Assembly: GCA_963725075.1 (NCBI GenBank) | Contig: CAVRXA010000026.1 | Coordinates: 110,288-174,287 of the forward strand | Length of the DNA stretch: 64,000 nt | Direction of reading: 5' to 3' | DNA from: an uncultured Acidobacteriota bacterium | GTDB taxonomy: Bacteria > Actinomycetota > Acidimicrobiia > Spongiisociales > ZC4RG35 | Part shown: positions 14,800-28,438 of the stretch, piece after piece | Layout: every line of letters starts with the position of its first letter | Position numbering within the stretch: the stretch's first letter is position 1 | Program-made: the position numbers and the translations under genes | The notes under the pieces: generated by a model | Seen by the model: only the letters and a program-made list of their open reading frames with translations | The model's database searches: none | Told to the model about the DNA's origin: nothing

Positions 14800-16413
14800 T
14801 CAGCTGTCTTCCATGAGGAGGTTGGCGTATTCGTTCCTGACGACCTTCTTGTCGAACTTGCCGGTGCCTGTCTTGGGGATCTGGTCGATGAACAGGATCT
14901 TGTCGGGCAGCCACCACTTGGCGACCCGCTCCTCGAGGAAGGAATGCAGATCCTCCTCCGACACCTCGGCACCTTCCCGCGGGACGACGAAGGCCACCGG
15001 GCGCTCCTGCCATTTCACGTGCTTCAGGCCGACGACGGTTGCCTCGCTCACGTCGGGGTGGGCCATGAGGGCGTTCTCCAGGTCGATCGATGAGATCCAC
15101 TCCCCGCCCGACTTGATCACGTCCTTTGCCCGGTCGGTGATCTTGATGTAACCCTCGGGCGTGATCTTGCACACGTCTCCGGTGCGGAGCCACCCGTCCT
15201 CGAACGACTGGGCGGAGCGGGTGTCCTGGTAGTACTCGGCGGCGATCCAGGGGCCGCGGATCAGCAGCTCCCCGAACGCCTCCCCGTCGTGGGGCAGCTC
15301 CTCCCCGATCTCGTCGACGATCTTCACCTGCAGCCCTGCCACCGGGATGCCCGCCGTCTCGAGAAAGTCGAGCTGCCGTTCCAGGTCCCATTCCTCCATC
15401 TCGGGCTTGAGCAGGCTCGTGGAGGCGACCGGGTTGGTCTCGGTCATGCCCCAGCCCTGCACGACCCGGATTCCCTGGACCTTCCAGTACCACTCGATCA
15501 TCGCTCGGGGGACCGCCGATCCACCGCAGAGGAAGGCGCGGATCGAGGAGAGGTCGACATCCGGATTCGCCTCGAGATACTGCTTGATCCCCAACCAGAC
15601 CGTGGGGACCCCGGCACTGAATGTCACTTTCTCCCGTTCGAGCAGGGGCACCAGACCCTGGGGGGTCAAGTCGGGACCGGGATAGGTGAGTTTGGCCCCC
15701 TGGGTGACTGCCATGAACGGGTACCCCCAGGCGGCCGCGTGGAACATCGGCACCACGGGCAGCACGTTGTCGCTCGGCAGCATGTTGAAGTTGGCCAAAT
15801 TGGAGATCGTGTGCAGATAGGTGGATCTCTGGGTGTAGGCGACCCCTTTGGGATTGCCGGTTGTTCCCGATGAGTAACAGAACATCATCGGGGACCGCTC
15901 ATCGAGCTGGGGCCAGGGACCGTGGGGCCCGGCGTCCCCGATCAGGTCTTCATATGCGATCGATCCCGGAATCGCGTCCGAGGCCGACTCGCCCATCACG
16001 ACGTAGGTCTCCACTGTTTTCAGCTCTGGTGTGATGGGTCCCAGGAGTGGGGCGAGATCGGGATCGACGAACATCACCTTGTCGCCGGCGTGATTGACGA
16101 TGTAGGCGATCTGGTCGGCGAAGAGCCTGATATTGACCGTGTGACAGACGAGCCCGGTGTTGGCGGTCGCCCAGTAGAGCTCGTGGTGCCGGCGGTTGTT
16201 CCAGGCAAACGTCCCCACGGGGTCGCCCTGCGTCAGACCCAGGCCCTGCAGCGCTGTGGCGAGACGCCGCACCCTGGTGTCGGTCTCGCCGTAGGTGGTG
16301 CGGGTTACCGACCGGTCGGCCTCGACGGAGACGATCTCCTGATCCGGGTAGAGCCAGACCGCACGGTCGTAGAGGGTGGACATATTGAGCGGGAAGTCCT
16401 GCATGTGTGGCAT
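14800..16413 (-). CDS. fatty-acid--CoA ligase (AMP-dependent synthetase)
   Basis: The AMP-binding motif YSSGTTGNPKG is present in the 537-aa track ORF, and a GEWISS motif lies in the C-terminal domain. Confidence 0.85.
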   Translation of the reverse strand: MPHMQDFPLNMSTLYDRAVWLYPDQEIVSVEADRSVTRTTYGETDTRVRRLATALQGLGLTQGDPVGTFAWNNRRHHELYWATANTGLVCHTVNIRLFADQIAYIVNHAGDKVMFVDPDLAPLLGPITPELKTVETYVVMGESASDAIPGSIAYEDLIGDAGPHGPWPQLDERSPMMFCYSSGTTGNPKGVAYTQRSTYLHTISNLANFNMLPSDNVLPVVPMFHAAAWGYPFMAVTQGAKLTYPGPDLTPQGLVPLLEREKVTFSAGVPTVWLGIKQYLEANPDVDLSSIRAFLCGGSAVPRAMIEWYWKVQGIRVVQGWGMTETNPVASTSLLKPEMEEWDLERQLDFLETAGIPVAGLQVKIVDEIGEELPHDGEAFGELLIRGPWIAAEYYQDTRSAQSFEDGWLRTGDVCKITPEGYIKITDRAKDVIKSGGEWISSIDLENALMAHPDVSEATVVGLKHVKWQERPVAFVVPREGAEVSEEDLHSFLEERVAKWWLPDKILFIDQIPKTGTGKFDKKVVRNEYANLLMEDS

Positions 16414-17024
16414 CAGGCGCCTCCTAACAGCTTCTGCTTCTCGGCTTCGAACTCGCTATCGGTCAGCTTGCCCTCGTCGTGGAGCCGGGACAGCGTCGCC
16501 AATTGAGATGCGGAGCTCTCCGCCGCAGCCGCCCGCCCCCCTGATTGCAATGAGTGCTGGCGGTCCTCTCTCGCCTGGTAGATCAGCGACTGGATCGCCT
16601 CTGGGTCGGGGATATCGGTGTAGTGGGTTTGCCCGTGCGTCCCGGCCGACTCGATGACGAGATCACCGGTCCCGAAAATCCGCTCCCATGCCGATTGCTT
16701 GAACGCCACATCGTTGATGACCTCGAGCGGGAGCTCTTTGCCTTGTTTGGAGAGCATGCCCACTCGGTGGATGAGGCGCTCGGTCGTTATGACGTGCAAG
16801 GTCGTGAACCAGCGAATGAACCCTCTCGCCGTCAGAACAAGCCACACGATGATGAGCGCGCCGATCACCCACACCGCCCAATCGAATCCCTGGAGAGCCA
16901 AGAAGACGATGATTGCGAGGGCGAGGATGGAGAGAAGGGCTTCCTTCAGGATCCCGGACCAGTGGGGTCTGAATTCGGCCTTGATCTCCTCGCCCGGGCT
17001 GAGCAGTTTCTCTGGATACGCCAT
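16413..17024 (-). CDS. membrane bPH (YdbS-like) domain protein with C-terminal SHOCT motif
   Basis: Two TM helices followed by HVITTERLIHRVGMLSKQGKELPL (bacterial PH), and a C-terminal LATLSRLHDEGKLTDSEFEAEKQKLL (SHOCT). The stop overlaps the downstream ATG (TGATG). Confidence 0.7.
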   Translation of the reverse strand: MAYPEKLLSPGEEIKAEFRPHWSGILKEALLSILALAIIVFLALQGFDWAVWVIGALIIVWLVLTARGFIRWFTTLHVITTERLIHRVGMLSKQGKELPLEVINDVAFKQSAWERIFGTGDLVIESAGTHGQTHYTDIPDPEAIQSLIYQAREDRQHSLQSGGRAAAAESSASQLATLSRLHDEGKLTDSEFEAEKQKLLGGA

Positions 17025-17083
17025 CGCGGCAGGCTACCGATCGGGTGGATGGGGTGACGGCCCACGATCACCGGGAGTCGGCC

Positions 17084-18415
17084 CTATCCATCGACCAGAT
17101 AGAGCTGCCAGGAGTCTTCGATACCCTTCAATTCGTGGGTTCCCGCATCCTTGAAGGCGAAGCCTGACCCTCCGGCCAGATCCTTGACCGTGCGTGACAC
17201 CATGACCGACCCGGGCGGCGCCAATCCCATGACCCGAGCCGCGACATGGACGCCAAACCCGCCGATGTCATCCCCCCCGGTTTCGATCTCCCCGGTGTGC
17301 AGCCCGGCACGGATCTCAATCCCCAATCCCCGGACCGCGTCTCGAATCGCCAGCGCCGCCCGGATGGCGCGGGCCGGGCCGTCGAAGGTCGCCAGCAGCC
17401 CGTCCCCGGTGGTCTTGACCAGACGACCTTGATACCGGTTGAGCTGGCGATCACTGACGCGGTTGTGCATCTCGAGCAACTCTCTCCACCGCTTGTCGCC
17501 GAAGGCGGACGCCTGCTCGGTAGACCCGACGATGTCGGTAAACAACACCGTCGCCAGTCTCCGATCCGGGTCACCACCACCGCGCTCTCCGGTCAGGAAC
17601 TCCTCTACCTCATCAATAAATCCGTCGACGTCGCCTAGACCCAATCCGTAATCGGCTCCAGGCAGCTCGACCAAGCGGGCGCCGGAGATGTTGTCGGCCA
17701 GGTAGCGCGTGCTCTCGCTGGACACCATGGCGTTGTCGCGACGATGCAGGACCAGGGTGGGGGCCTGGATCGACGGCAGGGCAGCCCGGACATCGATCTG
17801 AAAGAGCGTGCGGAGCACATCGCCGGCCGTGGCGGGACTCGCGGCGAGACGCAGGTACCGCGCCCAGGCCTGCTGACCCTCAGGATCTTCGGCCAGACTC
17901 GGATTCGTGGCAAGCATGATGGTGGGGCCACCCCAGGCCTGCTCCGTCATATCGATGAGCGCCTCCTGTGTGCTCTCGGGAATCCCGTACGGATAGTCGG
18001 GCGCCTCAGAGAGCCGGGCGCTGGTGTTGGCCAAGATGAGGGCTGACACTCGCTCCGGGTGGGTCGCCGAAAACAGCGCAGCCATCATCCCGCCGTCGGC
18101 CGCTCCCAACAGCGCAGCTTGTTCGACACCGACCGCGTCCATTACGGCGCGCACGTCGTCCATCCAGTCCTCGAGCGGCGGCGGCGCCCCAGGCGGAGTG
18201 GGGTCGGACATGCCGATGCCGTATTTGTCGAATGCGATCACGCGGGCAAATGCGCCGAGCCGATCCAACATGTGAGCGAATCCCGGTATCTCCCAGCGTG
18301 CCTCGAGATGACTGAACCAAACCGAGACGATCACGAGATCGATCGGCCCGTCCCCGGTCACCTGATAGGCGACGTGGATGTCACCGCGGGTGGCGTAACG
18401 GGTCTCGCCTTGCAT
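17084..18415 (-). CDS. alpha/beta-hydrolase-fold domain fused to class III adenylate/guanylate cyclase
   Basis: C-terminal ATVLFTDIVGSTE...KTTGDGLLATF...GLHTGE...GFGVHVAARV is a class III cyclase. The N-terminal 280 aa has a hydrolase-like fold. ATG at 18415 (or GTG at 18418). Confidence 0.85.
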   Translation of the reverse strand: MQGETRYATRGDIHVAYQVTGDGPIDLVIVSVWFSHLEARWEIPGFAHMLDRLGAFARVIAFDKYGIGMSDPTPPGAPPPLEDWMDDVRAVMDAVGVEQAALLGAADGGMMAALFSATHPERVSALILANTSARLSEAPDYPYGIPESTQEALIDMTEQAWGGPTIMLATNPSLAEDPEGQQAWARYLRLAASPATAGDVLRTLFQIDVRAALPSIQAPTLVLHRRDNAMVSSESTRYLADNISGARLVELPGADYGLGLGDVDGFIDEVEEFLTGERGGGDPDRRLATVLFTDIVGSTEQASAFGDKRWRELLEMHNRVSDRQLNRYQGRLVKTTGDGLLATFDGPARAIRAALAIRDAVRGLGIEIRAGLHTGEIETGGDDIGGFGVHVAARVMGLAPPGSVMVSRTVKDLAGGSGFAFKDAGTHELKGIEDSWQLYLVDG

Positions 18416-18439
18416 CACCGGACGCTAACGCCCCGATCG

Positions 18440-18885
18440 GCAGGGGTCCCACACAACGAGAAAGTCCCGAGGGAGCCTTGGCCGAAGCCTCAACCCTCTC
18501 GGGACTCTCGCCCATTCGATGTCGGGCCGGGGACCCAACTCCGAATGGAGTTCTTGCCGATGGCCGAAGCCGTCGGCAGGTGTGCGATCCGAAGATCGCG
18601 ACCTCCCCGTCTCCGAGAAGACCTTGCGGGTTTTTACATCCGCCGTTCGAAGGCCGCTCGACGATCCCGAAGGATCCCCGTCCGACTTCCGACCGTCCCT
18701 GACGCCCTCGGTTTCCCGGTGGCTCCAGGTTCCCGCACCACGGCCTCGGAGCGGCTCTCACCTCTCCGAACCTCTTGATTCGGGCCGCCGCCGGGTTTCC
18801 CCGTCGGCGTGGGTGGAAACGTAGACCGGCACCCCGGTGCCGGCAACTCAAGTCGGTCATTGTTTTTCGCGAGTGATCGAAAGTT
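18440..18885 (-). ncRNA. candidate large structured RNA / hairpin-repeat module A (unclassified)
   Basis: There is no credible ORF. At least 8 hairpins are present, including four capped C(UUCG)G and one GAAA when read on the minus strand. A terminal 52-nt hairpin (18458-18509) is shared with module B. Strand is inferred only from the tetraloop type. Confidence 0.4.
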
Positions 18886-18989
18886 TCCGCGGGGCTGACG
18901 GGGCGGGGGAAGTCGCCCCTAATTTCGCATTCGTCGTCGCCGACGCTCCTCGATGTGCTCGCAGATGTGGTGGAAGCGGCAGAAGAGCT

Positions 18990-19181
18990 TGCCCGAACAA
19001 GGGGAACGACCCGGTCACGGTCGAATGGTTCGGTTCCGTGCTGCGGCTCGACTCCGACGATCACTATGAGACCGGGCCGATCGGGGAGGTGCTCGACCCG
19101 GGCGCGTACGTCGTGACCTCGCGCCCCTACCCGATGCCGATGCTGCGGGTCGTCGATCCGGCCGCGCCAGTCACTGACTAA
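18990..19181 (+). other. orphan coding-like segment (possible gene remnant) between the two hairpin modules
   Basis: The frame of track ORF 18837..19181 has about 87% third-position GC over the last 56 codons (my count), against about 69% for the antisense frame. There is no in-frame start with an RBS apart from the distant ATG at 18837, and I recognise no family. Confidence 0.3.
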
Positions 19182-19196
19182 GGCAGCCCAGGACGC

Positions 19197-19430
19197 GAGA
19201 GACCCCGAGAAAGCTTTGGCCGAGGCCTCAGCCCTCTCGGGGCTCTCAGTGCCACTCGACCGGGAAAGCGGGCCCCCAGTCAGGTGGCGATCCGGAGGGA
19301 CCGAAGCCCTCTCCTTCCCCGACCCGGGCGAACCCGTGTCGGTAAGCGGCAACGTACGAAATCCGGCTTCACCCGTCAAGCCATACCGGGGCCTTGTTTT
19401 CGCGGCCTAGCCGATCTTTTCGCGTTTAGC
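19197..19430 (-). ncRNA. candidate structured RNA / hairpin-repeat module B, related to module A
   Basis: The hairpin at 19197-19247 is homologous to 18458-18509 with compensatory stem changes. A further C(UUCG)G hairpin lies at 19294-19314, and TTTTCGCG motifs at 19396 and 19416. Confidence 0.35.
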
Positions 19431-19438
19431 CTTGGCCC

Positions 19439-20059
19439 ATGGCAACGGCCCGGAAGAGCGTGCCGACTGCATGGGCCGTGGTCTTCTTTCTCATCACAGT
19501 GGTGCTCGTCTTCGCTGTGATCCGGGTGACGATCGACAGCCAGAACATCGCCAACGGAGTGATCCCAGATGAGGGCGAGTTCGATCGCCGCTACGCCCAG
19601 TACCCGATCCTGGCCTACGCCCACATCCTCCCCGGAGTCGTCTATCTGGTCCTTGCCCCCTTCCAGGTCTCTCGCCGATTCCGCAACCGCCATCTCGATC
19701 TGCACCGCAAGATGGGCCGCTTCCTGGTGCCGATCGGAATCCTCTCGGGAGTGCTCGGAGTCATCTTTGGCTTCTTCTTCTCCTTCGGCGGATTCGCCGA
19801 GGCCAGCGCCGCGGTGGTGTTCGGCACCTGGTTCGTCGTCGCTCTCGCCCTGGCCTACAGCTACATCCGCGCCGGCGACACCGTCCGTCATCGCCGATGG
19901 ATGATCCGGGCCTTCGCGATCGGCCTCGGAGTCGGGACGATCAGGATCTGGGTGGGGCTGTTCGAGGGATTCGGCCTACTCGACGAAGTCACTTCCTTCG
20001 GCGCGGCGTTCTGGTTGTCTTTTACGCTGCACGTGATCGCCGCCGAGATCTGGCTGTGA
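19439..20059 (+). CDS. DUF2306-like membrane protein
   Basis: 206-aa multi-TM ORF. The YAHILPGVVYLVLAPFQ and HRRWMIRAFAIGLGVGTIR regions resemble the family as I recall it. Confidence 0.6.
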   Translation: MATARKSVPTAWAVVFFLITVVLVFAVIRVTIDSQNIANGVIPDEGEFDRRYAQYPILAYAHILPGVVYLVLAPFQVSRRFRNRHLDLHRKMGRFLVPIGILSGVLGVIFGFFFSFGGFAEASAAVVFGTWFVVALALAYSYIRAGDTVRHRRWMIRAFAIGLGVGTIRIWVGLFEGFGLLDEVTSFGAAFWLSFTLHVIAAEIWL

Positions 20060-20089
20060 CGACGGCCCACCTGACCGATCTCCCCATTC

Positions 20090-20112
20090 CTGTCACAGGC
20101 CGGTCTTACACT
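20090..20112 (+). promoter_or_regulatory. candidate DNA-damage promoter motif TGTCAcag-N9-TACACT; probable leaderless transcript
   Basis: TGTCACAGGCCCGGTCTTACACT is followed by 7 nt and then the GTG start at 20120. Confidence 0.35.
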
Positions 20113-20119
20113 CGGCTTC

Positions 20120-20908
20120 GTGACTGTCGAACTGGAATTGGCCCCCCTGGAGACCCTCTCCCCGAGCCGTGCCGGGGACTTCAAGGCGTGTCCACAGCTC
20201 TTCAAGTTCCGGGCCATCGACCGGCTGAGCGAGCCCGCATCGGTGTATCAGGCCCGGGGCACCACGGCCCATCTCGCACTGCAGCGACTCTTCGACCACC
20301 CCTCCATCGATCGTTCGCCCGAACTTCTCTACGACCTGTTCCGAGAGGCCTGGACCGAGCTCCGAGGGAGCGAGGAGTTCGAGGACCTGTTCGGCGACAC
20401 CGACGAGGAGCGCCAATGGGGAGTTGAGTCCCTCGCCCTTCTCACCAACTACTTCAGCATCGAGGACCCGACCGGGTTCGACCCGGTGGACCGCGAGCTG
20501 GACATGCTCGAGGACCTCGACGGAATCACGATCAGGGGGATCCTCGACCGGATCGACCGCGACGAGGACGGTCGTCTCGTCATCACCGATTACAAGACGG
20601 GAAAGGCCCCTCCGGAGCGATATGCCCTCCCCGCCTTCTTCGCCCTGAAGATCTACGCCCTCCTCATCCGACGCCGCACCGGGGAGACTCCCAAGGAGCT
20701 TCGCCTCCTCTATCTCAGCGGGCCGACCCTGTACAGGCTGGACATCGACGACCGCCAGCTCGATGCCATGGACTCGCAGCTCCGGGCGCTGTGGAACGCC
20801 ATCGACCGCGCCCTGGCCACCCGAAACTTCCCCACCCGACCAGGCACGTTGTGCAACTGGTGCTCGTTCAAGGAGATCTGCCCCGCCTTCACCGGGATGA
20901 CCGCCTAG
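20120..20908 (+). CDS. PD-(D/E)XK RecB-family exonuclease with 4-Cys (Cas4-like) cluster
   Basis: FKACPQLFKF at the N-terminus, the ILDRIDRDEDGRLVITDYKTG nuclease core and C-terminal CNWCSFKEICP. Confidence 0.8.
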   Translation: MTVELELAPLETLSPSRAGDFKACPQLFKFRAIDRLSEPASVYQARGTTAHLALQRLFDHPSIDRSPELLYDLFREAWTELRGSEEFEDLFGDTDEERQWGVESLALLTNYFSIEDPTGFDPVDRELDMLEDLDGITIRGILDRIDRDEDGRLVITDYKTGKAPPERYALPAFFALKIYALLIRRRTGETPKELRLLYLSGPTLYRLDIDDRQLDAMDSQLRALWNAIDRALATRNFPTRPGTLCNWCSFKEICPAFTGMTA

Positions 20909-22176
20909 GGGAAGATCCCCCGCACCAGCTTGGCGTCGGCCACCTTGCGGATCCCCTTGATGAGGGCGGCAGTCCTCAGGTCGACGTCTTCGTTGATGGC
21001 GATGTTGTGTACGTCGCTGAAGGCCCGAGTCATGATCTCCCGCAGCCGCGCCACCACTTCGTTCTCGGTCCAGAAGTACTTCTGGACGTCCTGCACCCAC
21101 TCGAAATAGGAGACCGTGACACCTCCGGCGTTGGCCAGGATGTCCGGGATGATCAGGACATCCTTCTCGCGGAGAATGTCGTCGGCTTCGATCGTGGTCG
21201 GCCCGTTGGCGCCTTCGATGATGATCTTGGCCTGGATCTCCCCGGCGTTGTCCCCACGGATGACGTTCTGGATCGCGGCCGGCACGAGGACATCGACGGG
21301 CAGGGAGAAGATCTTGTCACCGTCGATGAAGTCGGCGTCGGGGAATCCTTCGAGGAAGCGGTTCTCGTCGACCCACTTCGCCACCGCGTCGACCTCGAGC
21401 CCCTCTGGGTCGTAGAGCGCACCGGAGATGTCCGACACAGCCGCGATCTTGACTCCCATCTGATGACCGGCGATTGCCGCATACCTGCCCACGTTGCCGA
21501 AGCCGTGGATCGCGACCGTGACACTGTTGGGGTCGATCTCCCGCACCCCGGCCGCCTGGGGTAGGAGGAACATCAGCCCGCGGCCAGTCGCCTCGCGTCG
21601 GGCCACGCTGCCCCCAAGAGCCGGCGGCTTTCCGGTGACCACGGCGGGGACCGAGTGCCCGACATGTTGGGAGTACGTGTCCATGAGCCAGGCCATCACC
21701 TGCTCGTTGGTGCCGAGGTCGGGGGCGGGGATGTCGGTTTCCGGCCCGATCACGTTGATGATCTCCATCGTGAAGCGCCTGGTCACCCGTTGCAGCTCGG
21801 CCCGGGAAAGCTGCATCGGGTCGACACGGACGCCACCCTTTGCCCCGCCGAAGGGAAGACCGACGATCGAGCATTTCCAGGTCATCAACATGGCGAGCGC
21901 GGCGACCTCGCCCAGGTCTACGTCGGGAGCGAAACGGATCCCGCCTTTGGTGGGGCCCATGGTGGTGAGGTGCTGGATCCGGTAACCGAAGAGGGTCTCC
22001 ACCTCCGAATAGGTGTCACGGCGGAACGGGAAGCTGACCATGGTCGACTTTTGCGGGACACGGAGCCGGTCGGCGACGTTGTCGTCCAGGCCCATTAGCC
22101 GGGCCACCCGGTCGAACTGGCCGGCGGCCTCCTTGTACATCGGTGAGTCGAATTCGTTGCCAACCGCAGTGGTCAC
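20905..22176 (-). CDS. gdhA: glutamate dehydrogenase (Glu/Leu/Phe/Val dehydrogenase family)
   Basis: LPFGGAKGGVRVDP catalytic-Lys motif and GFGNVG Rossmann motif. Length 423 aa. Confidence 0.85.
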   Translation of the reverse strand: MTTAVGNEFDSPMYKEAAGQFDRVARLMGLDDNVADRLRVPQKSTMVSFPFRRDTYSEVETLFGYRIQHLTTMGPTKGGIRFAPDVDLGEVAALAMLMTWKCSIVGLPFGGAKGGVRVDPMQLSRAELQRVTRRFTMEIINVIGPETDIPAPDLGTNEQVMAWLMDTYSQHVGHSVPAVVTGKPPALGGSVARREATGRGLMFLLPQAAGVREIDPNSVTVAIHGFGNVGRYAAIAGHQMGVKIAAVSDISGALYDPEGLEVDAVAKWVDENRFLEGFPDADFIDGDKIFSLPVDVLVPAAIQNVIRGDNAGEIQAKIIIEGANGPTTIEADDILREKDVLIIPDILANAGGVTVSYFEWVQDVQKYFWTENEVVARLREIMTRAFSDVHNIAINEDVDLRTAALIKGIRKVADAKLVRGIFP

Positions 22177-22267: not shown

Positions 22268-22405
22268 ATGAGCTACTTCGAGACATCCCAACCGGCCACC
22301 GAGCCCGACGCCGACCCGTTCACCGACCCCGTCCGCTACCTGGCCGAACATGGGATCGAGGCCGAGCTGGTCGCGGAGATCGCCCGGCTTCCGGAGGCGG
22401 CCTGA
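22268..22405 (+). CDS. small acidic protein (45 aa) preceding adnA
   Basis: MSYFETSQPATEPDADPFTDPVRYLAEHGIEAELVAEIARLPEAA. About 89% third-position GC by my count. It ends 16 nt before the adnA GTG. Confidence 0.5.
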   Translation: MSYFETSQPATEPDADPFTDPVRYLAEHGIEAELVAEIARLPEAA

Positions 22406-22421
22406 CCCTACGATCAGCACC

Positions 22422-25373
22422 GTGCCGTTGACCGAGATCCGGCTCGAGCCGGAAGACTGGGGCCCCGCGCTCGCCGATGCCGATGGCCCCCAAATCGTGG
22501 TGGCCGGGCCGGGCACCGGGAAGACCGAGTTTCTGGTGCGCCGGGTCTGTTCTCTCGTCGAATCAGGGCAGGCGCGGAGAGACCAGATCGCCCTCCTGAC
22601 TTTCTCCCGGCGTACTGCCGGAGACATCCGGCGTCGAGTCGAAGCCGCCCTCGGTGGCGGCGGGATGCCCATCGGCGCCTCCACATTCCACTCGCTGGCC
22701 CTCCGGCTATTGGAGGCCGCGCCCGGATCCGACCGTCCCATTCCCCTAACCACACCCGAGCAGATCGGTCTGGTCGGTGAGCTTCTCCAGACCGAGGACC
22801 CGGAACAGTGGCCGATCCTGTATCGGGGCATCCTGGGCTCGAGCGCCTTCGCCGGTGAGGTCGCCGACTTCCTCATGCGGTGCTCCGAGAGGATGCTCTC
22901 CCCCGAGGACCTAGAGGCGAGGGCGACCGAGCGCGCCGACTGGCGGGGCATCCCGGGCTTGTTCCGCCGGTACCGGGAGACACTGGCGGAGCGCGGCCGC
23001 ACCGACTACGCAACCCTCCTCGTCTCGGCTGTCGATCTGCTCGGACGCCCGGAGGGACAGGAACTGGCAGCTCAGTTCACCCACGTCCTCGTCGACGAGT
23101 ATCAGGACACCTCGACCGTACAAGCCGAAATCGCCCGTCTCATGGCCCTGCCCCACGGAAATCTCACGGCGGCCGGAGACCCCTACCAGTCGATCTACTC
23201 GTTCCGGGGCGCAGAGGTGAGGAACATCGCCGCGTTCACCGAACAGCACCCCGACGCACGGCGGATCGTGCTGGGCAGGAGCCTGAGGGTCCCGGCACAG
23301 ATCCTCGACTCGGCGCTTCGCATCGTCTCCGCCGGCGATCTTCCCGGCTCGGCCGGTCCGGTCGCCCCGGCCGCCCACGCCGGACGGGTCGAGACCTACG
23401 TGTTCGACCAGGAGACCGCCGAGGCAGATTGGATTGCGCGGGACATCGAGCACCAAATCCGCGTCGAAGGGCGAGAGCCGTCAACCATCGCGGTGCTGGT
23501 TCGGTCCAAACGGGAGATGCTCAACGAGCTGAGCCGGGCGCTGGACCGAAGAAACGTGCCCCACGACTCGCCGGAGACCCGACTCACCGAGAACCCGGCG
23601 GTGCGGATGATCCAGGATCTGGTGACCGTGGCCAAGAGCGGCGGGCCTACACCCGTGGTCACACCCGGAGAAGCGGCCGACGCCGACCGGGCGATGCGAA
23701 GACTGTTGTTGGGCCCCTTGATCGGATTAGGGCTGGGAAAAGAACGGGAGATCCTGCGTTCCCGAATCCGCACCTGGGATCCCTGGCCTGCCGTCCTTGC
23801 CCGCGAGCTTCCCGAGCACGCCGGGCTGGCCGCTCTGCTCGACCAGCGCGAATGGGCGGTTGAGCTGCCGGCGATCGACGGCTTCTGGAAACTCTGGACC
23901 AGCATCGATGAACTGGAACGGGTGGTACTCGACCCGGAGCGGAAGGATTGGCGTCTCGCCTTCACGTCGTTCTCCCAGGTGTTGGAGCGTCAGGCGGAGC
24001 GGGACGCCACGGTGACACTCGACGCTGTGTTCAGGTTGAGCGAGGAGGACGGGATCGAATCGACCCCGCTTCTCCCCTACCGGTCCGACGAGCAGCACGT
24101 CACGCTGACCACTCTGCACCAGGCCAAGGGCCTCGAATTCGAAGTCGTCTACATCGCCAACGCCGTGGAGGGGGTCTTCCCCGACCTTCGACGAGGGCGG
24201 AGGATGTTGAGGCCCGAGTTGCTCTCTCCGGAACGGACCACCAACCCCGAGGCTCAGCATCTGTTTCAGATCCAGGAGGAGATGCGTCTCGCCTACACCG
24301 CTATGACACGGGCCAGATCCAAGGTGGTCTGGACCGCCACCTCGGCCGGTGTCGATCAAGGTGAGCACCGCCCATCTCGATTCCTCATGGCCGCCGCCGA
24401 GCCCGGGGTGGGTCCCGGCCTGCCCGAGGAGCAGGACGGCCCACCGGTTTCGCTCGGCGAGGCCGAGGTCTCCCTGAGACGGACCCTGCTCGACCCCGGC
24501 GCCACCGCGTTCGATCGTCTCGCCGCCGCACAGCTACTGGCACGGCCACCGGCTCCCTGGTGGAATCCCATGGCATTCGCCGGGGTGCCCGCGCCCGGGC
24601 CTGACCAGCCGATCCTTGGGGAGGGTCTGCGTCTTTCCCCCAGCCAGGCCGGCGCCTACGTCAATTGTCCCCGGCAGTATGCCCTGGAGCGTCGTCTCGG
24701 CTTGAGCGAGTCCTTCTCCCCGTACGCCGCGTTGGGGACGCTGGTCCATTCGGCGTTGGAGGCAGCGGAGAAAGAGGTCATCGGCTCGGGAAAGACCCAT
24801 GCCGATCTCGCCGACGCCATGAGGCACCTGGAGAAGGTGTGGGCGGAGGCAGACTTCGGCACCCCTCAACTCGACCAAGCATGGCTGGGCCACGCCCGTG
24901 AAGCCGTCATCAAGCTCTACGAGAAATGGCCCAGCGATGGGTTGCCTATCGAGGTGGAGAAAAAGGTCGAGACCGAGATCGGCGGCGTCCAATGGGTCGG
25001 CTACATCGACAGGCTGGAGAAAGGCCCCGACGGGCTGCGGGTCATCGACTACAAGACCTCCAGGAACCCGCCGAGCGTCGCTGATGCCAAAGAGTCGGTG
25101 CAACTCGCCTTCTATGCCTCGGCTGTGGGCAAGGAAACCGGGGAACCGGTCGTCGCAGCCGAGATGTGGTTCCCTCGCACCGACGCCGTGTCCGTGACCA
25201 AGAGGTCGTTCGACATGGATCTCCTCCCCGAGGTCGTGGAGACCATGGAGGAAGTGACCACCGCGATCCTGGAGGAGCGTTGGGAACCCAGGGTCAACAA
25301 CCGGTGCAAGAGATGCGACTTCCGGTTGTCCTGCCCGGCCTGGGCCGAAGGAAAGGGCGCCTACCTGCCATGA
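22422..25373 (+). CDS. adnA: helicase-nuclease subunit AdnA-like (UvrD-type motor plus C-terminal RecB-type nuclease)
   Basis: GPGTGKTE Walker A, VDEYQDT, C-terminal GYIDRLEKGPDGLRVIDYKTS nuclease motif, and a 4-Cys set (CPRQ...CKRCDFRLSCP). GTG start at 22422. Confidence 0.85.
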   Translation: MPLTEIRLEPEDWGPALADADGPQIVVAGPGTGKTEFLVRRVCSLVESGQARRDQIALLTFSRRTAGDIRRRVEAALGGGGMPIGASTFHSLALRLLEAAPGSDRPIPLTTPEQIGLVGELLQTEDPEQWPILYRGILGSSAFAGEVADFLMRCSERMLSPEDLEARATERADWRGIPGLFRRYRETLAERGRTDYATLLVSAVDLLGRPEGQELAAQFTHVLVDEYQDTSTVQAEIARLMALPHGNLTAAGDPYQSIYSFRGAEVRNIAAFTEQHPDARRIVLGRSLRVPAQILDSALRIVSAGDLPGSAGPVAPAAHAGRVETYVFDQETAEADWIARDIEHQIRVEGREPSTIAVLVRSKREMLNELSRALDRRNVPHDSPETRLTENPAVRMIQDLVTVAKSGGPTPVVTPGEAADADRAMRRLLLGPLIGLGLGKEREILRSRIRTWDPWPAVLARELPEHAGLAALLDQREWAVELPAIDGFWKLWTSIDELERVVLDPERKDWRLAFTSFSQVLERQAERDATVTLDAVFRLSEEDGIESTPLLPYRSDEQHVTLTTLHQAKGLEFEVVYIANAVEGVFPDLRRGRRMLRPELLSPERTTNPEAQHLFQIQEEMRLAYTAMTRARSKVVWTATSAGVDQGEHRPSRFLMAAAEPGVGPGLPEEQDGPPVSLGEAEVSLRRTLLDPGATAFDRLAAAQLLARPPAPWWNPMAFAGVPAPGPDQPILGEGLRLSPSQAGAYVNCPRQYALERRLGLSESFSPYAALGTLVHSALEAAEKEVIGSGKTHADLADAMRHLEKVWAEADFGTPQLDQAWLGHAREAVIKLYEKWPSDGLPIEVEKKVETEIGGVQWVGYIDRLEKGPDGLRVIDYKTSRNPPSVADAKESVQLAFYASAVGKETGEPVVAAEMWFPRTDAVSVTKRSFDMDLLPEVVETMEEVTTAILEERWEPRVNNRCKRCDFRLSCPAWAEGKGAYLP

Positions 25374-28300
25374 GCTCGTTCGAGCCGTCACCAGAGCAGA
25401 AGACGGTTCTCGACATGGGTCTCGACACGATCCGGATACGGGCCGGGGCCGGCACCGGCAAGACAACGACCGTCGCCCTCGTCATCGCCAACCTCGTGGA
25501 GAACCACGGTGTCGACCCGGAGCGGATCCTGGGAATCACGTTCACCAACAAGGCGGCATCCGAGCTGGCCGACAAGGTGAAGGCGTTTCTCGGGTCCGCG
25601 GTGGAGGAAGGCCGTCAGGCAGAGGTCCACACCTATCACGGGTTCGCCGCCCAGATCCTGGCGGAGTTCGGCGCCCTCGCCGGGGTCGACACCAGGGTCA
25701 GGGTTATCACCCCGACCTTCTCCCGACAGATCCTGTCCGAGACCTATCACCACACCACGTATGACCATCTCGACATCACCAACGCACACGGGTTGGACAA
25801 GATCCGGACGCTGGGCGACCGCATGGGCGACCACCTCCTCACCCCTGCCGATCTCCTACCGCATGTCGACCCCACCGACGAGGTGTGGGCGATGCGGTCC
25901 GAGATGTTGAAAACGCTGGAACGCTATGACACCGACAAGCGGCGGCTGAGAGTTGTCGATTACGCCGATTTGGTGACCTTGTCCACCGATCTCCTCAGAA
26001 GTCACCCCGAGCTGGCGGCAGAGATCCGGGACCGCTACCAGGTCGTGATCCTGGACGAGTACCAGGACACCAACCCGGCGCAGCGAGTGTTGCTCACCAC
26101 GGTGTTCGGGCCCTCCGATGGGCAGACGGGGATCCCGGTGATCGCGGTGGGTGACGAGGACCAGACGATCTACGAATGGCGGGGAGCATCAGCCGAGAAC
26201 TTCGAGCTCTTCCCCACCCATTTCCCGGCGCCGGACGGAGGTCCCGCCAAGCACGGCGCCCTCACCCTCAACAGGCGCTCGGCTCCTGAGATACTCGAGG
26301 TTGCCAATGAGATCAGGCGGCGGGCCAACCCGGATGCTGAAGACCTGGTTTCCCACGAGCCCGAATCGAAGGGCGAGGTGGTGACGTACTGGGCAGAGGA
26401 CGCCGTTGCAGAAGCCGATTGGATCGCTCGCAGGTTCGAAGCGTTGCACGAGGCGGACACACCCTGGTCGGAGATGGCGGTCCTGTTCAGGAAGAACAGG
26501 GATTTCGCCGTCGTGGTGGACGCCTTCGCCCGGCATGACATACCGGTCGAGGTGGCCAACCTCGGGGGACTGCTCTCGGTCCCCGAGGTGGCCGACCTCC
26601 GGGCGTGGCTTACGGTGCTCGACCGGCCCGAGCACTCGGCCTCGCTGGTCCAGATCCTCTTCGGCAGCCGCTATCGCCTCGGCTACGCCGACATCGCCCC
26701 CCTGACTCGCAGGCTGGGCGGCACCCGCCGGGAGGATGTGGATCGCGATGCGGTGCCCGGCGTGAGCCTGCTCGAGGCGATCGAGCAGGTCGACGAGATC
26801 GAAGGGCTGCGTCCCGGAGCCAGGGCTGCCTACGAGCACTTCCTGAACATCTATCGAGAGGTGCTATCCGAGAGCCAGGGCGCCAGCCTGGTCGAGGTCT
26901 GCCGGCTCGTCCTGGACAGGACCCGCGCCTGGCAGGACGTCGAGTCACTCCCTATCAATCAGAGGACCACCGCCCGGCTCAATCTCTATCGCCTTCTAGA
27001 CCTGGCCGAAGAGTGGAGCCCGCTCATGGGACGCCCGTCGCTTTCGGCCTTCCTCGACTACCTGGAGGCGATGGAGGACGAGCCGGCCGAGGAGCTCGAC
27101 TCGGCTCATCTCTCGGGAGAAGAGGCGGTCACGCTGGTGACCGTGCACCGGGCGAAAGGGCTGGAATGGGATGTGGTCGCCATCCCGGCGGTCACCGATA
27201 GGAGCTTTCCGGTGACGACCGGGGCTTTCCCGGACCCCGTCCGGTTCGCCCAGTTCCTGCCTCCGGAGCATCGGATCGACGACGCACTGGCCGACATGCC
27301 TGACGACGAGGAGGAGCGAAAGGACTACTTCCGGGGTCAGAACGCTCTCCAGGAATGGAGGGTGGCCTATGTGGCGGCGACCCGGGCCCGGTCGATGCTG
27401 ATCATGACCGGTTCCTACTGGTATGGGCTCCCCGAGCCCACCATCAATGCCAAGAAGCCATCGGAGCTCTTCGATCTCGTCGAACAGCACCCGGTCACGC
27501 GCAAAGAGGGCCATGTCGACGAGCCAGAGCGGCCGGCGCTGCTGCGATTCGCCGCCGCAGGCGCCACCCCCGACCCATTGTTCGAGGAAGGCTGGGACGG
27601 CGCATTGCGGGCCGCGGTCGCGGACGAAGACGCTCTTCTGGAGATGGCCGGGGCGATGGGCGTCGCCGAGGCGTACCAGCAGAAGGTCGAGGAGATGCGC
27701 CAGACTCTGTTCGATCTCGACGCCCTCGGGGACATCGTTGCCGACCCTCAGAAGAGAAGGGTCGTCTCGGTGACGGGGCTCGTCACCTATGCCCAGTGCC
27801 CCAAGCGGTTCTTCTGGTCCGAGGTCGACCCGTTGCCCCGTCGTCGCAACATGGCCGCCGTCGCCGGCACCGAGTTGCATCGCCGGATCGAGCTTCATCA
27901 GAGGGGTCAGGTCCCCTTCGATGACTTCGAGCCCGGGAACTACGACGCCATGGACGAATCGACCGGCGATGGCGGCTTCAAGGCTTTTCTCGGGTCCCGC
28001 TACGGGACCGACGAGGCTCTGTTGGTGGAAGCGCCGTTCACCTTGCCCACCGAGAGCGGATACCAGATCAAGGGCCGGATCGACGCGATCTACGAGAGCG
28101 ATGGGAACTGGGAGATCGTCGACTTCAAGAGCGGGAGATGGAGGGACGACCCCGCTCGCCTCGTCCAGCTCCAGGCCTACGCGGTGGCCGCCACCGAGGT
28201 GGATTTCGGCGTGGGCAAGCCGCAAGAGATCGATGTCACCTTCGCCTACCTCGGAGGTGGGCTCGATGTCCACACGGAGCATGCCGATGAGGAGTGGCGC

Positions 28301-28438
28301 CTGGATGCGGCCAGGAACCTCGAAGGGTTGACCTCTGCCATCGAAGACGACCGGTTCGAGGCGGTGCCCGGAGACTGGTGTCGCCATTGTGACTTTCTCC
28401 GCTTCTGCCCGGAGGGCAAAAGCGAAGTCGGGGAATGA
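25370..28438 (+). CDS. adnB: helicase-nuclease subunit AdnB-like
   Basis: The ATG at 25370 overlaps the adnA stop (ATGA). Motifs: GAGTGKTT, LDEYQDTNPAQ, TVHRAKGLEWD, C-terminal GRIDAIYESDGNWEIVDFKSG and CPKRF...CRHCDFLRFCP. Confidence 0.88.
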   Translation: MSSFEPSPEQKTVLDMGLDTIRIRAGAGTGKTTTVALVIANLVENHGVDPERILGITFTNKAASELADKVKAFLGSAVEEGRQAEVHTYHGFAAQILAEFGALAGVDTRVRVITPTFSRQILSETYHHTTYDHLDITNAHGLDKIRTLGDRMGDHLLTPADLLPHVDPTDEVWAMRSEMLKTLERYDTDKRRLRVVDYADLVTLSTDLLRSHPELAAEIRDRYQVVILDEYQDTNPAQRVLLTTVFGPSDGQTGIPVIAVGDEDQTIYEWRGASAENFELFPTHFPAPDGGPAKHGALTLNRRSAPEILEVANEIRRRANPDAEDLVSHEPESKGEVVTYWAEDAVAEADWIARRFEALHEADTPWSEMAVLFRKNRDFAVVVDAFARHDIPVEVANLGGLLSVPEVADLRAWLTVLDRPEHSASLVQILFGSRYRLGYADIAPLTRRLGGTRREDVDRDAVPGVSLLEAIEQVDEIEGLRPGARAAYEHFLNIYREVLSESQGASLVEVCRLVLDRTRAWQDVESLPINQRTTARLNLYRLLDLAEEWSPLMGRPSLSAFLDYLEAMEDEPAEELDSAHLSGEEAVTLVTVHRAKGLEWDVVAIPAVTDRSFPVTTGAFPDPVRFAQFLPPEHRIDDALADMPDDEEERKDYFRGQNALQEWRVAYVAATRARSMLIMTGSYWYGLPEPTINAKKPSELFDLVEQHPVTRKEGHVDEPERPALLRFAAAGATPDPLFEEGWDGALRAAVADEDALLEMAGAMGVAEAYQQKVEEMRQTLFDLDALGDIVADPQKRRVVSVTGLVTYAQCPKRFFWSEVDPLPRRRNMAAVAGTELHRRIELHQRGQVPFDDFEPGNYDAMDESTGDGGFKAFLGSRYGTDEALLVEAPFTLPTESGYQIKGRIDAIYESDGNWEIVDFKSGRWRDDPARLVQLQAYAVAATEVDFGVGKPQEIDVTFAYLGGGLDVHTEHADEEWRLDAARNLEGLTSAIEDDRFEAVPGDWCRHCDFLRFCPEGKSEVGE

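Follow-up and report, generated by a model that had tools for sequence, protein, structure and literature searches.

Layout of the gap and its signals

The window (the whole stretch of 64,000 nucleotides that was analyzed) contains a gap of about 1 kb whose minus strand carries two modules arranged head to tail, RNA B and then RNA A. Both share one architecture, consisting of a pair of CGCGAAAA boxes at a distance of 21 bp, a TTGNNN-17-TACNTT motif, a helical body, and a 50-nt hairpin at the 3′ end. The helices within the bodies are capped by UUCG or GNRA tetraloops. The features are listed below.

19397–19424, minus strand: box pair of RNA B, two copies of CGCGAAAA (19424–19417 and 19404–19397); probable regulator binding site
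19351–19379, minus strand: inferred promoter of RNA B, −35 TTGACG (19379–19374), 17-nt spacer, −10 TACGTT (19356–19351); TTGA and TA..TT positions invariant in 47 species
19192–19343, minus strand: RNA B, about 150 nt, both ends inferred; supported by covariation, module length, and folding z-score
19197–19247, minus strand: B copy of the shared 3′ hairpin, with CUCG as its loop (in this genome) and a UCUCUCGCG tail after it; identified by hairpin comparison
18863–18891, minus strand: box pair of RNA A, CGCGGAAA (18891–18884) and CGCGAAAAA (18871–18863); more than 50 species show the layout of RNA B
18818–18846, minus strand: inferred promoter of RNA A, −35 TTGCCG (18846–18841), 17-nt spacer, −10 TACGTT (18823–18818); conserved motif
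18453–18810, minus strand: RNA A, about 355 nt, both ends inferred; supported by covariation, folding z-score, and homologue lengths
18458–18509, minus strand: A copy of the shared 3′ hairpin, with UUCG as its loop and a UUUCUCGUUG tail after it; nine invariant pairs in 36 species

The original prediction, which had been made from this DNA alone, proposed two related modules of unclassified structured RNA, and the limits that it set coincide almost exactly with the extents of gene plus promoter. It had also pointed to segments containing TTTTCGCG; these exist and correspond to the upstream minus-strand boxes, which do not vary. In RNA B, the CGCGAAAA boxes are invariant across 47 species, with 20 to 21 bp from start to start and centers at about −78 and −58 relative to the inferred start. 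In RNA A, the CGCGGAAA box carries one additional G in this clade. In the ~0.75 Mb examined, the box pair was specific to these RNA genes: 142 of its 146 occurrences precede one of them and the other four lie at locus ends. The 64 kb window holds one complete pair, where none would be expected. No wider regulon for the CGCGAAAA boxes was detected in the same ~0.75 Mb. We infer that one factor may bind the boxes and co-regulate both RNAs. The neighboring gene of 262 amino acids was considered as a source of such a regulator and discarded, as it encodes a PD-(D/E)XK nuclease and not a DNA-binding regulator.

The TTGNNN-17-TACNTT motif would serve as a housekeeping-type promoter, with the start predicted at an A about 7 nt beyond it; from this inferred start, each RNA would open directly with a hairpin. 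Across 47 species, the TTGA and TA..TT positions of the RNA B promoter are invariant and their spacing is fixed. The full motif was present in all RNA A homologues listed, with T1, A2, T5, and T6 of the −10 box invariant. A simple consensus scan called neither promoter, and the −10 box fits TATAAT at only three of six positions; the RNA B promoter was missed because its −10 box follows the TANNNT pattern.

From 5′ to 3′, RNA B comprises P1 (the 5′ hairpin), P2, whose loop is UUCG, P3, and finally the 3′ hairpin common to both RNAs; P3 is formed by an outer GCCAC/GUGGC helix and an inner CUGGGGG[CCCGCU]UUCCCGG hairpin. RNA A begins with a GAAA-capped hairpin (18810–18786), which is followed by a variable set of GNRA- or UUCG-capped hairpins. 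Next come a conserved core, ACGGGGAUCC-UUCG-GGAUCGUCGAGCGG, and the hairpin GGAGUUGGG[UCCCCGG]CCCGAC; the common 3′ hairpin closes the molecule. The GAAA-capped stem that had been recognized at 18787–18808 is indeed present and represents the 5′-terminal hairpin of RNA A. Likewise, the two 3′ hairpins lie at the positions first given for them. They are direct copies that are 86% identical over 44 nt, and reading of the sequence agrees that 29 of their final 32 nt are the same. The compensatory change noted between them is real, as T18465–A18504 in the A copy corresponds to C19203–G19242 in the B copy.

Distribution and covariation of the two modules

The genome sample was defined by exact matches to a 23-nt hairpin probe in a scan of 185,579 genomes. 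The probe matched 91 loci, nearly all in metagenome-assembled genomes of Acidimicrobiia. This exact selection inflates the apparent invariance of the upper part of the hairpin and limits the taxonomic breadth that can be claimed. We found that about 85 species of Acidimicrobiia carry RNA A and RNA B in conserved form, in one order and at a single syntenic locus; the A-type always comes before the B-type on the same strand, at a distance of 464 to 2721 nt (44 loci and the window). All genomes found here with these RNAs are metagenome-assembled. The pair is flanked by a bPH/SHOCT gene in 67 and by a PD-(D/E)XK nuclease gene in 67 of the 91 loci, within a conserved AMP-binding / bPH / RNAs / PD-(D/E)XK / GDH block. 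The cyclase and DUF2306 genes that adjoin the RNAs in the window are rare inserts, and the cyclase occurs in only 6 of the 91 loci. As to whether the modules would prove dispersed or syntenic with the cyclase, they occupy a single syntenic locus, but the cyclase is not their usual neighbor. Conservation reaches its maxima on both modules and falls over the cyclase, DUF2306, and positions 18900–19150. The RNA B module measures 230 to 242 nt in 47 species, while RNA A ranges from 338 to 463 nt across a set of 43 related species, of which 36 entered its alignment.

Both alignments support conserved secondary structures. For RNA B, the 51 pairs were 94.9% paired across 47 species, as compared to 38 to 63% when the partners were slid, with compensatory changes at 29 pairs. 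For RNA A, the 109 pairs were 91.9% paired across 36 species, as compared to 35 to 51%, with compensatory changes at 57 pairs. In neither case was any of 500 shuffles as good. These counts were made on the same alignments from which the structures had been derived. The folding energy was also lower than that of shuffled sequence (z = −6.0 for RNA A and −4.6 for RNA B), and no shuffle was as stable. The consensus folds of both RNAs are series of local hairpins; the single long-range helix predicted in RNA A is weak (79% paired). Homologues differ by insertions and deletions of whole hairpins, not of codons.

The minus strand is identified as the RNA strand because G·U pairs far exceed A·C pairs, with 385 versus 33 cells in the RNA B alignment and 401 versus 78 in that of RNA A. 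In addition, UUCG, GAAA, and GAGA loops are present only in the minus-strand reading. The hexamer CCGAAG, to which attention had been drawn, lies on the plus strand at 18482, 18564, 18589, 18667, and 19301. Its expected frequency is low, as had been estimated: 82 occurrences per 128 kb of strand in the window correspond to ~0.65 in the gap, and at least five would arise with a Poisson probability of ~7e-4. Taken alone, this excess is suggestive; combined with the cross-species data it is decisive, because the loops are either conserved or exchanged for other stable tetraloops.

The shared 3′ hairpin behaves differently from the remaining helices. In the B copy, the lower stem CCCCGAG/CUCGGGG is invariant in 47 species, whereas the other helices covary freely, and in the A copy nine base pairs are invariant in 36 species. 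Overall, eight to nine stem pairs of the hairpin do not vary across 36 to 47 species, as compared to 60 to 90% covarying pairs in other helices. The hairpin is probably an intrinsic terminator, and together with the UUUCUC tail it would end transcription. The terminators were not called by a simple scan, and the tail contains only four U in eight positions. The hairpin is also a probable protein-binding module; sequence constraint on both of its arms is what a recognition site would be expected to show.

Known RNA families offered no match. At the gathering threshold, Rfam 15 covariance models gave no hit in the whole window or in 18 homologous loci. In E-value mode, only scattered, chance-level matches to eukaryotic miRNA and lncRNA models appeared in this region of the window, and nothing overlapped RNA A or RNA B in eight divergent loci. 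Apart from these chance-level matches, the two modes returned nothing in the window and 26 homologous loci. The initial impression that the modules fit neither RNase P, tmRNA, SRP, or 6S RNA nor the TPP or cobalamin riboswitches is upheld for the window by the covariance models. A plus-strand GAAAGTCC resembles the P4 motif of RNase P; conservation is lacking, with GAAACCCC in most species, the Rfam models did not match, and this candidate was rejected. We found no described Acidimicrobiia ncRNA in the literature. The absence from Rfam is probably explained by the purely metagenome-assembled carriers.

In terms of sequence, the modules have the features of standalone sRNA genes, namely, a promoter motif, a structured body, a terminator-like end, and flat codon-position GC, while their transcription is inferred and consensus scans missed the signals. 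The proposal of two related, unclassified structured RNAs on the minus strand is supported by covariation in 36 to 47 species, the G·U over A·C asymmetry, and the lack of an Rfam family. We consider it very likely that RNA A and RNA B are structured RNAs encoded on the minus strand and likely that they form separate, predicted transcription units. Our main reading, to which we assign a probability of about 0.6, is that each module is a gene of its own on this strand, paralogous to the other, and encodes a stable, structured small RNA. Because no expression data exist, the strand, ends, and abundance of both RNAs are deduced from sequence alone.

Leader, repeat, and coding-gene explanations

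RNA A always lies upstream of a co-oriented gene, and in many loci the end of its hairpin is only 41 to 90 nt from the start codon. This is the arrangement of a cis-acting leader or attenuator, with RNA A as the hypothetical 5′ leader of that gene (ancestrally bPH/SHOCT, here the cyclase) and the hairpin as a regulated terminator. However, a conserved TANNNT box belonging to the downstream gene itself lies 6 to 8 nt before the ATG, and this gene is leaderless at any hairpin distance (41 to 315 nt); for the cyclase, the box reads TAGCGT and lies 6 nt before the ATG. Moreover, RNA B has the same architecture and precedes the RNA A promoter, not a gene, which agrees with the earlier remark that no gene lies downstream of this module in the minus orientation. 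The hairpin is the most conserved part of the RNA, the opposite of a riboswitch expression platform, and inspection revealed no conserved antiterminator pairing. Because the cyclase and bPH genes have leaderless promoters of their own, we regard a leader as very unlikely. The suggestion of a long structured leader of the cyclase is not sustained, given the rarity of this gene at the locus and its own −10 box.

A repeat at the DNA level (REP or MITE copies, recombination sites around cargo genes, or the ends of an IS200/IS605-type element) could account for two 50-bp imperfect palindromes in direct repeat with variable genes between and beside them, and several assemblies end at the hairpin. 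Against this, the window contains only two hairpin copies, and no assembly among the 185,579 genomes had more than two exact probe matches, all at one syntenic locus, which also disposes of the repeat element entertained in the original prediction. Viral contig and plasmid collections contained no match, and a phage or plasmid origin was rejected on this ground. No associated transposase or integrase was seen. Among the inspected ORFs between the hairpins (first 60 residues, no Pfam run), we recognized no transposase, and the flanks are fixed. Inserts also occur away from any hairpin, upstream of the RNA B boxes, and covariation with G·U asymmetry is a signature of RNA, not DNA. We judge a repeat or mobile-element remnant to be highly improbable. 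An integron attC site was likewise dismissed, as no GTTRRRY core was seen in the hairpin, synteny is fixed, and no integrase was seen. As for a decayed or frameshifted protein-coding gene across the region, which had been named as a finding that would refute the RNAs, mechanical ORFs of 332 amino acids (minus strand) and 114 amino acids (plus strand) exist, and positions 18980–19181 form the only stretch with a coding-like GC3 pattern. Yet neither ORF had a Pfam match, no homologue emerged among 5.8 billion protein clusters, codon-position GC is flat over both RNA genes, and homologues vary by whole-hairpin insertions and deletions. The 18980–19181 stretch is a spacer between the RNA genes, without homologue and missing from all related loci. 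The statement that the gap holds no credible ORF was therefore essentially right, and a coding gene can be practically ruled out.

Mode of action and relation to known RNAs

If the two modules are independent small RNA genes, they might act in trans through protein binding and not base-pairing, an inference that we hold only tentatively. It is based on the apical loops, which are interchangeable inert tetraloops (UUCG, CUCG, GAAA, and GCAA), and on the sequence constraint in the 3′ hairpin. Stable, co-regulated, protein-binding RNAs are the most likely description of RNA A and RNA B, with function inferred only. There is no direct evidence for any particular protein partner.

In actinobacterial 6C RNA, C-rich loops are described as pairing with G-rich mRNA ribosome-binding regions. 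RNA A and RNA B could work as base-pairing sRNAs in a similar manner, with the C-rich loops UCCCCGG and CCCGCU as seeds and the other hairpins merely stabilizing. The two loops are invariant in the main clade, and the RNAs are standalone, with an inferred promoter and a terminator-like end. However, distant members carry UUCG at these positions (L043, L044, and L046 for A; L001, L022, L062, and L087 for B), so the C-rich loops are not universally needed. The size, class-level conservation, and dense covariation are also atypical of pairing sRNAs, and the Rfam 6C model did not match. We consider trans-acting base-pairing unlikely, but, with two apical loops conserved and C-rich in the main clade, it remains possible.

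Among conceivable protein partners, RNA polymerase is a doubtful one, suggested only by analogy with Ms1 and CoRP, and its binding is untested. Lineage-specific RNA-polymerase-binding RNAs (Ms1 and CoRP) occur in the same phylum, and their discoverers expect further classes (PMC11077062). By the same analogy, and as no more than a speculative and improbable proposal, RNA A and RNA B could be the abundant RNAs that bind RNA polymerase in Acidimicrobiia and that have so far been missing there. They would then add a fourth class to 6S, Ms1, and CoRP, one split into two co-regulated paralogues. The 3′ hairpin would dock, and the CGCGAAAA boxes would tie synthesis to growth state. The idea that Actinomycetota have lineage-specific RNAs of this function now becomes directly testable in a new class.

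Ms1 RNA (MTS2823 / scr3559) of Actinomycetia is a highly structured RNA of the same phylum and resembles the present pair in its standalone gene, which has a terminator and a promoter of the housekeeping type (both inferred for RNA A and RNA B), and in its length (~300 nt versus ~355 nt for RNA A). The Ms1 gene has a HAD hydrolase/SerB-like gene on one side, while the opposite neighbor encodes an oxidoreductase, a PH-domain protein, or a regulator; in some Micrococcales, a "PH domain-containing protein" gene borders its intergenic region (PMC9130861). At our locus a PH-domain flank is present as well (bPH_2/SHOCT), a parallel at the level of domain type, but the conserved block has no HAD-hydrolase gene. 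Ms1 folds into a long hairpin with a central bubble (PMC4191392), unlike the hairpin string of RNA A and RNA B. It is also a single gene, as opposed to two paralogous ones, and is reported only in orders of Actinomycetia. Profiles of both RNAs gave no match to Ms1 of S. coelicolor at E ≤ 100 (nhmmer --max; a single Ms1 sequence). With no similarity to this single sequence and none in fold, homology to Ms1 was rejected. 6S RNA is likewise a stable, structured, protein-binding regulatory RNA from a housekeeping-type promoter, protein binding being inferred in our case; Rfam 6S models did not match, and RNA A and RNA B lack its rod-plus-bubble. A string of hairpins in place of a rod with a central bubble, as in 6S and Ms1, speaks against the RNA-polymerase-binding analogy.

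CoRP of Corynebacterium works as pieces of 318 and 198 nt (PMC11077062), sizes comparable to the ~355 and 150 nt of RNA A and RNA B. It too is a lineage-restricted, abundant structured RNA, from an actinobacterial group without 6S and Ms1. However, it is made as one 516-nt transcript that is cleaved and lies between tRNA genes, whereas RNA A and RNA B are two genes with their own inferred promoters in another neighborhood. REP/BIME elements share the ~50-bp imperfect, GC-rich intergenic palindromes present in more than one copy, but the present hairpins number only two per genome, keep to a fixed locus, and are each part of a longer, conserved, covarying RNA.

Soil, freshwater, and marine communities harbor Acidimicrobiia in abundance, but the class has barely been cultured. 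The 1-kb "empty" gaps of the kind described here warrant annotation as RNA genes. Large bacterial RNAs of unknown function have repeatedly proved to be ribozymes, ribonucleoprotein scaffolds, or global regulators. With covariation and presence in ~85 species-level genomes, RNA A (355 nt) and RNA B (150 nt) join the small group of large bacterial RNAs whose function is unknown. Like raiA, OLE, ROOL, and GOLLD, they have large covarying folds rich in GNRA and UUCG loops, are conserved over a wide taxon, and have a function that is unknown or barely known. Those four RNAs are all in Rfam, where none matches, and come from other taxa. RNA A and RNA B differ from them further in forming a tandem paralogous pair with common promoter boxes and a common 3′ hairpin, and this paired layout, with the same boxes, promoter, and 3′ hairpin on different bodies, provides a good experimental handle.

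Two covarying RNA structures on the minus strand

We read the sequence from 18200 to 19700 and found both predicted hairpins in place (18458-18509 and 19197-19247), with their last 32 nt matching at 29/32 positions as proposed; a repeat finder reported them as a direct repeat pair with 86% identity across 44 nt. The stem change said to preserve pairing was likewise present, T18465-A18504 in copy A corresponding to C19203-G19242 in copy B. A 30-nt degenerate probe (≤3 mismatches) detected no copy but these two in the 64 kb window, where none was expected. CCGAAG was found at all five plus-strand positions listed for it; its window-wide frequency (82 per 128 kb of strand) predicts ~0.65 in the region, and by our own calculation, the Poisson probability of at least five is ~7e-4. 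The fold stability of the window's own RNA A and RNA B, the genes containing these hairpins, gave z = -6.0 and z = -4.6 against shuffles. The hairpin-dense structured region is thus real.

Homologous modules were aligned by MAFFT, with structures predicted from the same data. The RNA B consensus (47 species, module length 230-242 nt) contains 51 base pairs that were 94.9% paired, as compared to 38-63% with partners slid by 1-3 columns, and none of 500 shuffles matched it on any of five measures. For RNA A (36 species), the 109 consensus pairs were 91.9% paired versus 35-51% when slid, and 0/500 shuffles were as good. Compensatory changes occurred at 29 of the 51 and 57 of the 109 pairs, respectively, upholding the claim of two related, covarying modules. 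G·U cells outnumbered A·C cells by 385 to 33 in RNA B and 401 to 78 in RNA A, and the same pairs taken as plus-strand RNA were just 80-83% paired. Read as minus-strand RNA, the commonest 4-nt loops were UUCG, GAGA, GAAA, and CUCG; read as plus-strand RNA, they were CGAA, UCUC, and UUUC. Tetraloops change from one stable class to another between species (P1 of RNA B, for instance, has UUCG, GCAA, or GAAA); such swapping is typical of structural RNA. Together, these data show that both minus-strand RNA structures are conserved and covary, at a fixed locus and with flanking motifs in common.

Every module carries the same minus-strand series: CGCGAAAA - N12/13 - CGCGAAAA(A)CAA - ~14 nt - TTGNNN - 17 nt - TACNTT - ~7 nt - structured body - long hairpin - UUUCUCGCG.

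Features of the two RNA genes in the window (all minus strand)
19424-19417 and 19404-19397: RNA B boxes, the paired motifs upstream of the promoter
19379-19374: RNA B -35, TTGACG (inferred)
19356-19351: RNA B -10, TACGTT (inferred)
~19343: RNA B likely start, A (inferred)
19247-19197: RNA B 3' hairpin
~19192: RNA B 3' end (inferred), length ~150 nt
18891-18884 and 18871-18863: RNA A boxes
18846-18841: RNA A -35, TTGCCG (inferred)
18823-18818: RNA A -10, TACGTT (inferred)
~18810: RNA A likely start, A (inferred)
18509-18458: RNA A 3' hairpin
~18453: RNA A 3' end (inferred), length ~355 nt

The -10 boxes are of the TANNNT type, which is usual in Actinomycetota. Consensus scans called neither promoter nor terminator: the -10 box is missed by a TATAAT-based scan and the tail, poor in U, by the terminator rule, so we assigned both signals from their position and their invariance between species. 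In all sequence examined, we counted 146 box pairs, 142 followed by the 3' hairpin and four cut by locus ends, and the pair was confined to these RNA genes. With the inferred ends, either RNA would have a hairpin at its very start and another at its close, the design expected of a stable RNA.

In the 43 related species that were collected, RNA A is 338-463 nt long, the length varying through gain or loss of whole GNRA-capped hairpins. Its core ACGGGGAUCC-UUCG-GGAUCGUCGAGCGG and the hairpin GGAGUUGGG[UCCCCGG]CCCGAC hardly vary in the main clade, and the RNA B hairpin CNGGGGG[CCCGCU]UUCCNGG is invariant; more distant members carry UUCG in place of the UCCCCGG and CCCGCU loops.

A fixed RNA pair among variable genes

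The 23-nt hairpin core GGCCGANGCCTCANCCCTCTCGG matched 91 stretches in 185,579 genomes (one per species), the matched set being skewed toward relatives sharing the exact probe. Two matches, in Sutterella and Bathyarchaeota assemblies, had unrelated flanks and were dismissed as chance. The others lie in metagenome-assembled genomes labeled Acidimicrobiia, Actinomycetota or, for the closest relatives, "Acidobacteriota," with no named isolate among them. Conservation beyond each hairpin extended only rightward on the plus strand. At 44 loci and in the window, type A (..CTCAACCC..) precedes type B (..CTCAGCCC..) on the same strand, with 464-2721 nt between hairpins.

Conserved blocks (blastn, window 16000-22000 against all loci)
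16000-17050: AMP-binding enzyme and bPH_2/SHOCT protein
18450-18890: module A
19150-19430: module B
20100-22176: PD-(D/E)XK nuclease and glutamate dehydrogenase

The fixed order, the conserved flanking blocks, and the presence of never more than two hairpin copies per assembly speak against a repeat element. Synteny with the cyclase gene did not hold either: this hydrolase-cyclase fusion (17084-18415, minus) is found at only 6/91 loci, the DUF2306 gene (19439-20059, plus) at 10/91, and 18900-19150 at none. Judged from sequence, these three are lineage-specific inserts; the RNA locus tolerates, or attracts, gene insertion. In other genomes, these three gaps are occupied by genes of entirely different kinds.

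The closest relatives (95-99% protein identity; six loci and others) were deposited as 'uncultured Acidobacteriota bacterium' (MFD isolates). Because ~70 other assemblies with the same locus are labeled Acidimicrobiia, the 'Acidobacteriota' label looks wrong. One copy lies in an assembly labeled Boseongicola (Alphaproteobacteria), probably on a mis-binned contig. At six loci, short-read assemblies end at the hairpin, with matches ~100 nt or less from contig ends; such breaks are expected because a 50-nt sequence is present twice ~500 nt apart, and annotation pipelines will frequently pick up just half of the RNA pair. One hairpin arm is partly duplicated in tandem beside the RNA A hairpin of a related locus (L054:4131-4200), and at another locus a short GTACTGA/GTACCAA microsatellite lies downstream of the hairpin, between it and the bPH gene.

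Leader, coding, and mobile-element explanations

The original prediction allowed for a long cyclase leader. The cyclase has its own TAGCGT box (18427-18422), 6 nt ahead of its ATG at 18415. Elsewhere, the gene downstream of RNA A, usually bPH/SHOCT, lies 41-315 nt from the hairpin and carries a conserved TANNNT box of its own 6-8 nt ahead of the ATG, and RNA B is followed by the RNA A promoter; we therefore rejected the leader reading. The box precedes the bPH/SHOCT start codon in >40 species, and both this gene and the cyclase are apparently expressed as leaderless mRNAs. As to coding, mechanical ORFs of 332 aa (minus) and 114 aa (plus) do exist, neither with a Pfam hit, so that the absence of a credible ORF essentially stands. 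GC by codon position is flat across 18440-18900 and 19185-19438, and the lack of any homologue of the 114-aa ORF in 5.8 billion protein clusters led us to reject a pseudogene. A mobile element could account for the diverse genes between A and B, some of which resemble oxidoreductases, methyltransferases, HNH-like, and membrane proteins (first residues by eye, no Pfam). We rejected it, as no similar sequence was found in viral contigs or plasmids and the diverse inserts fill all three intergenic gaps, a pattern that looks more like a permissive site than like site-specific capture.

Within the RNA A/RNA B spacer, ~200 nt at 18980-19181 (plus, inside ORF 18837-19181) have coding-like GC by codon position (0.67/0.47/0.87). 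This segment has neither a Pfam hit nor a homologue in the 5.8 billion protein clusters, is missing from all 91 related loci, the closest included, and could be either a small orphan gene or what is left of an insert.

At 20091-20122 (plus), the GTG start (20120) of the neighboring PD-(D/E)XK gene lies 7 nt past a TACACT box, itself 8 nt past TGTCACAG. We take this arrangement to match the RecA-independent (PafBC-type) promoter of the actinobacterial DNA-damage response, which has the form TGTCRGTG-N8-TANNNT and a leaderless start; the alignment of related loci shows the motif to be conserved. Genes for AdnAB-like helicase-nucleases are found close by (22350-28438). Both the codon-position GC and a Pfam hit support the 262-aa plus-strand ORF (20120-20908) as the nuclease, and the overlapping 335-aa minus-strand ORF (20093-21100), the longest there, was discarded as spurious.

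Mode of action and relation to known RNAs

RNA A and RNA B would be separate, co-regulated transcription units making stable trans-acting RNAs, an inference without expression data. We tentatively favor protein binding (probability about 0.4, no binding data), because most apical loops are inert tetraloops that can replace one another, conservation spans the class and comes with dense covariation, and the stem pairs of the shared 3' hairpin are unchanging next to freely covarying helices (8-9 pairs unchanged in 36-47 species). Base-pairing ranks below it and seems unlikely. The invariant pairs point to a putative sequence-specific recognition exceeding the needs of termination. This invariance is partly selection bias, since the exact probe spans the loop, upper stem, and 3' arm; yet the lower-stem 5' arm, CCCCGAG, lies outside the probe and is also invariant. 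As one candidate protein partner, RNA polymerase is more doubtful still.

In line with the original failure to match either module to such RNAs as RNase P or tmRNA, no Rfam family reached threshold in the window, and a permissive scan of the region gave only chance-level hits to eukaryotic models. Nothing was found in 18 homologous loci at the gathering threshold or in eight divergent ones at E ≤ 1, and full-text literature searches returned no described Acidimicrobiia ncRNA. Among known RNAs, the closest in kind are the abundant ones of Actinomycetota that bind RNA polymerase. Ms1, reported in Actinomycetia orders only, is ~300 nt long, has a rod shape with a bubble at its center, and is linked to a HAD-hydrolase gene (PMC4191392, PMC9130861). 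Cellulomonas-type Ms1 loci have a PH-domain gene on one flank (PMC9130861); one conserved flank of RNA A/B is bPH_2/SHOCT. In contrast, the RNA A and RNA B profiles do not match S. coelicolor Ms1, their fold is not rod-like, and their conserved block lacks the HAD gene. CoRP of Corynebacterium, a 516-nt RNA cleaved into 318 and 198 nt, is encoded between tRNA genes (PMC11077062). Given the absence of Rfam matches and the mismatch to Ms1 in profile and fold, membership of these families is not supported. CoRP shows that RNA-polymerase-binding RNAs are lineage-specific and unrecognizable from sequence, and its authors propose the existence of further classes (PMC11077062); a functional analogy of RNA A and RNA B with Ms1 and CoRP, drawn without binding data, is possible.
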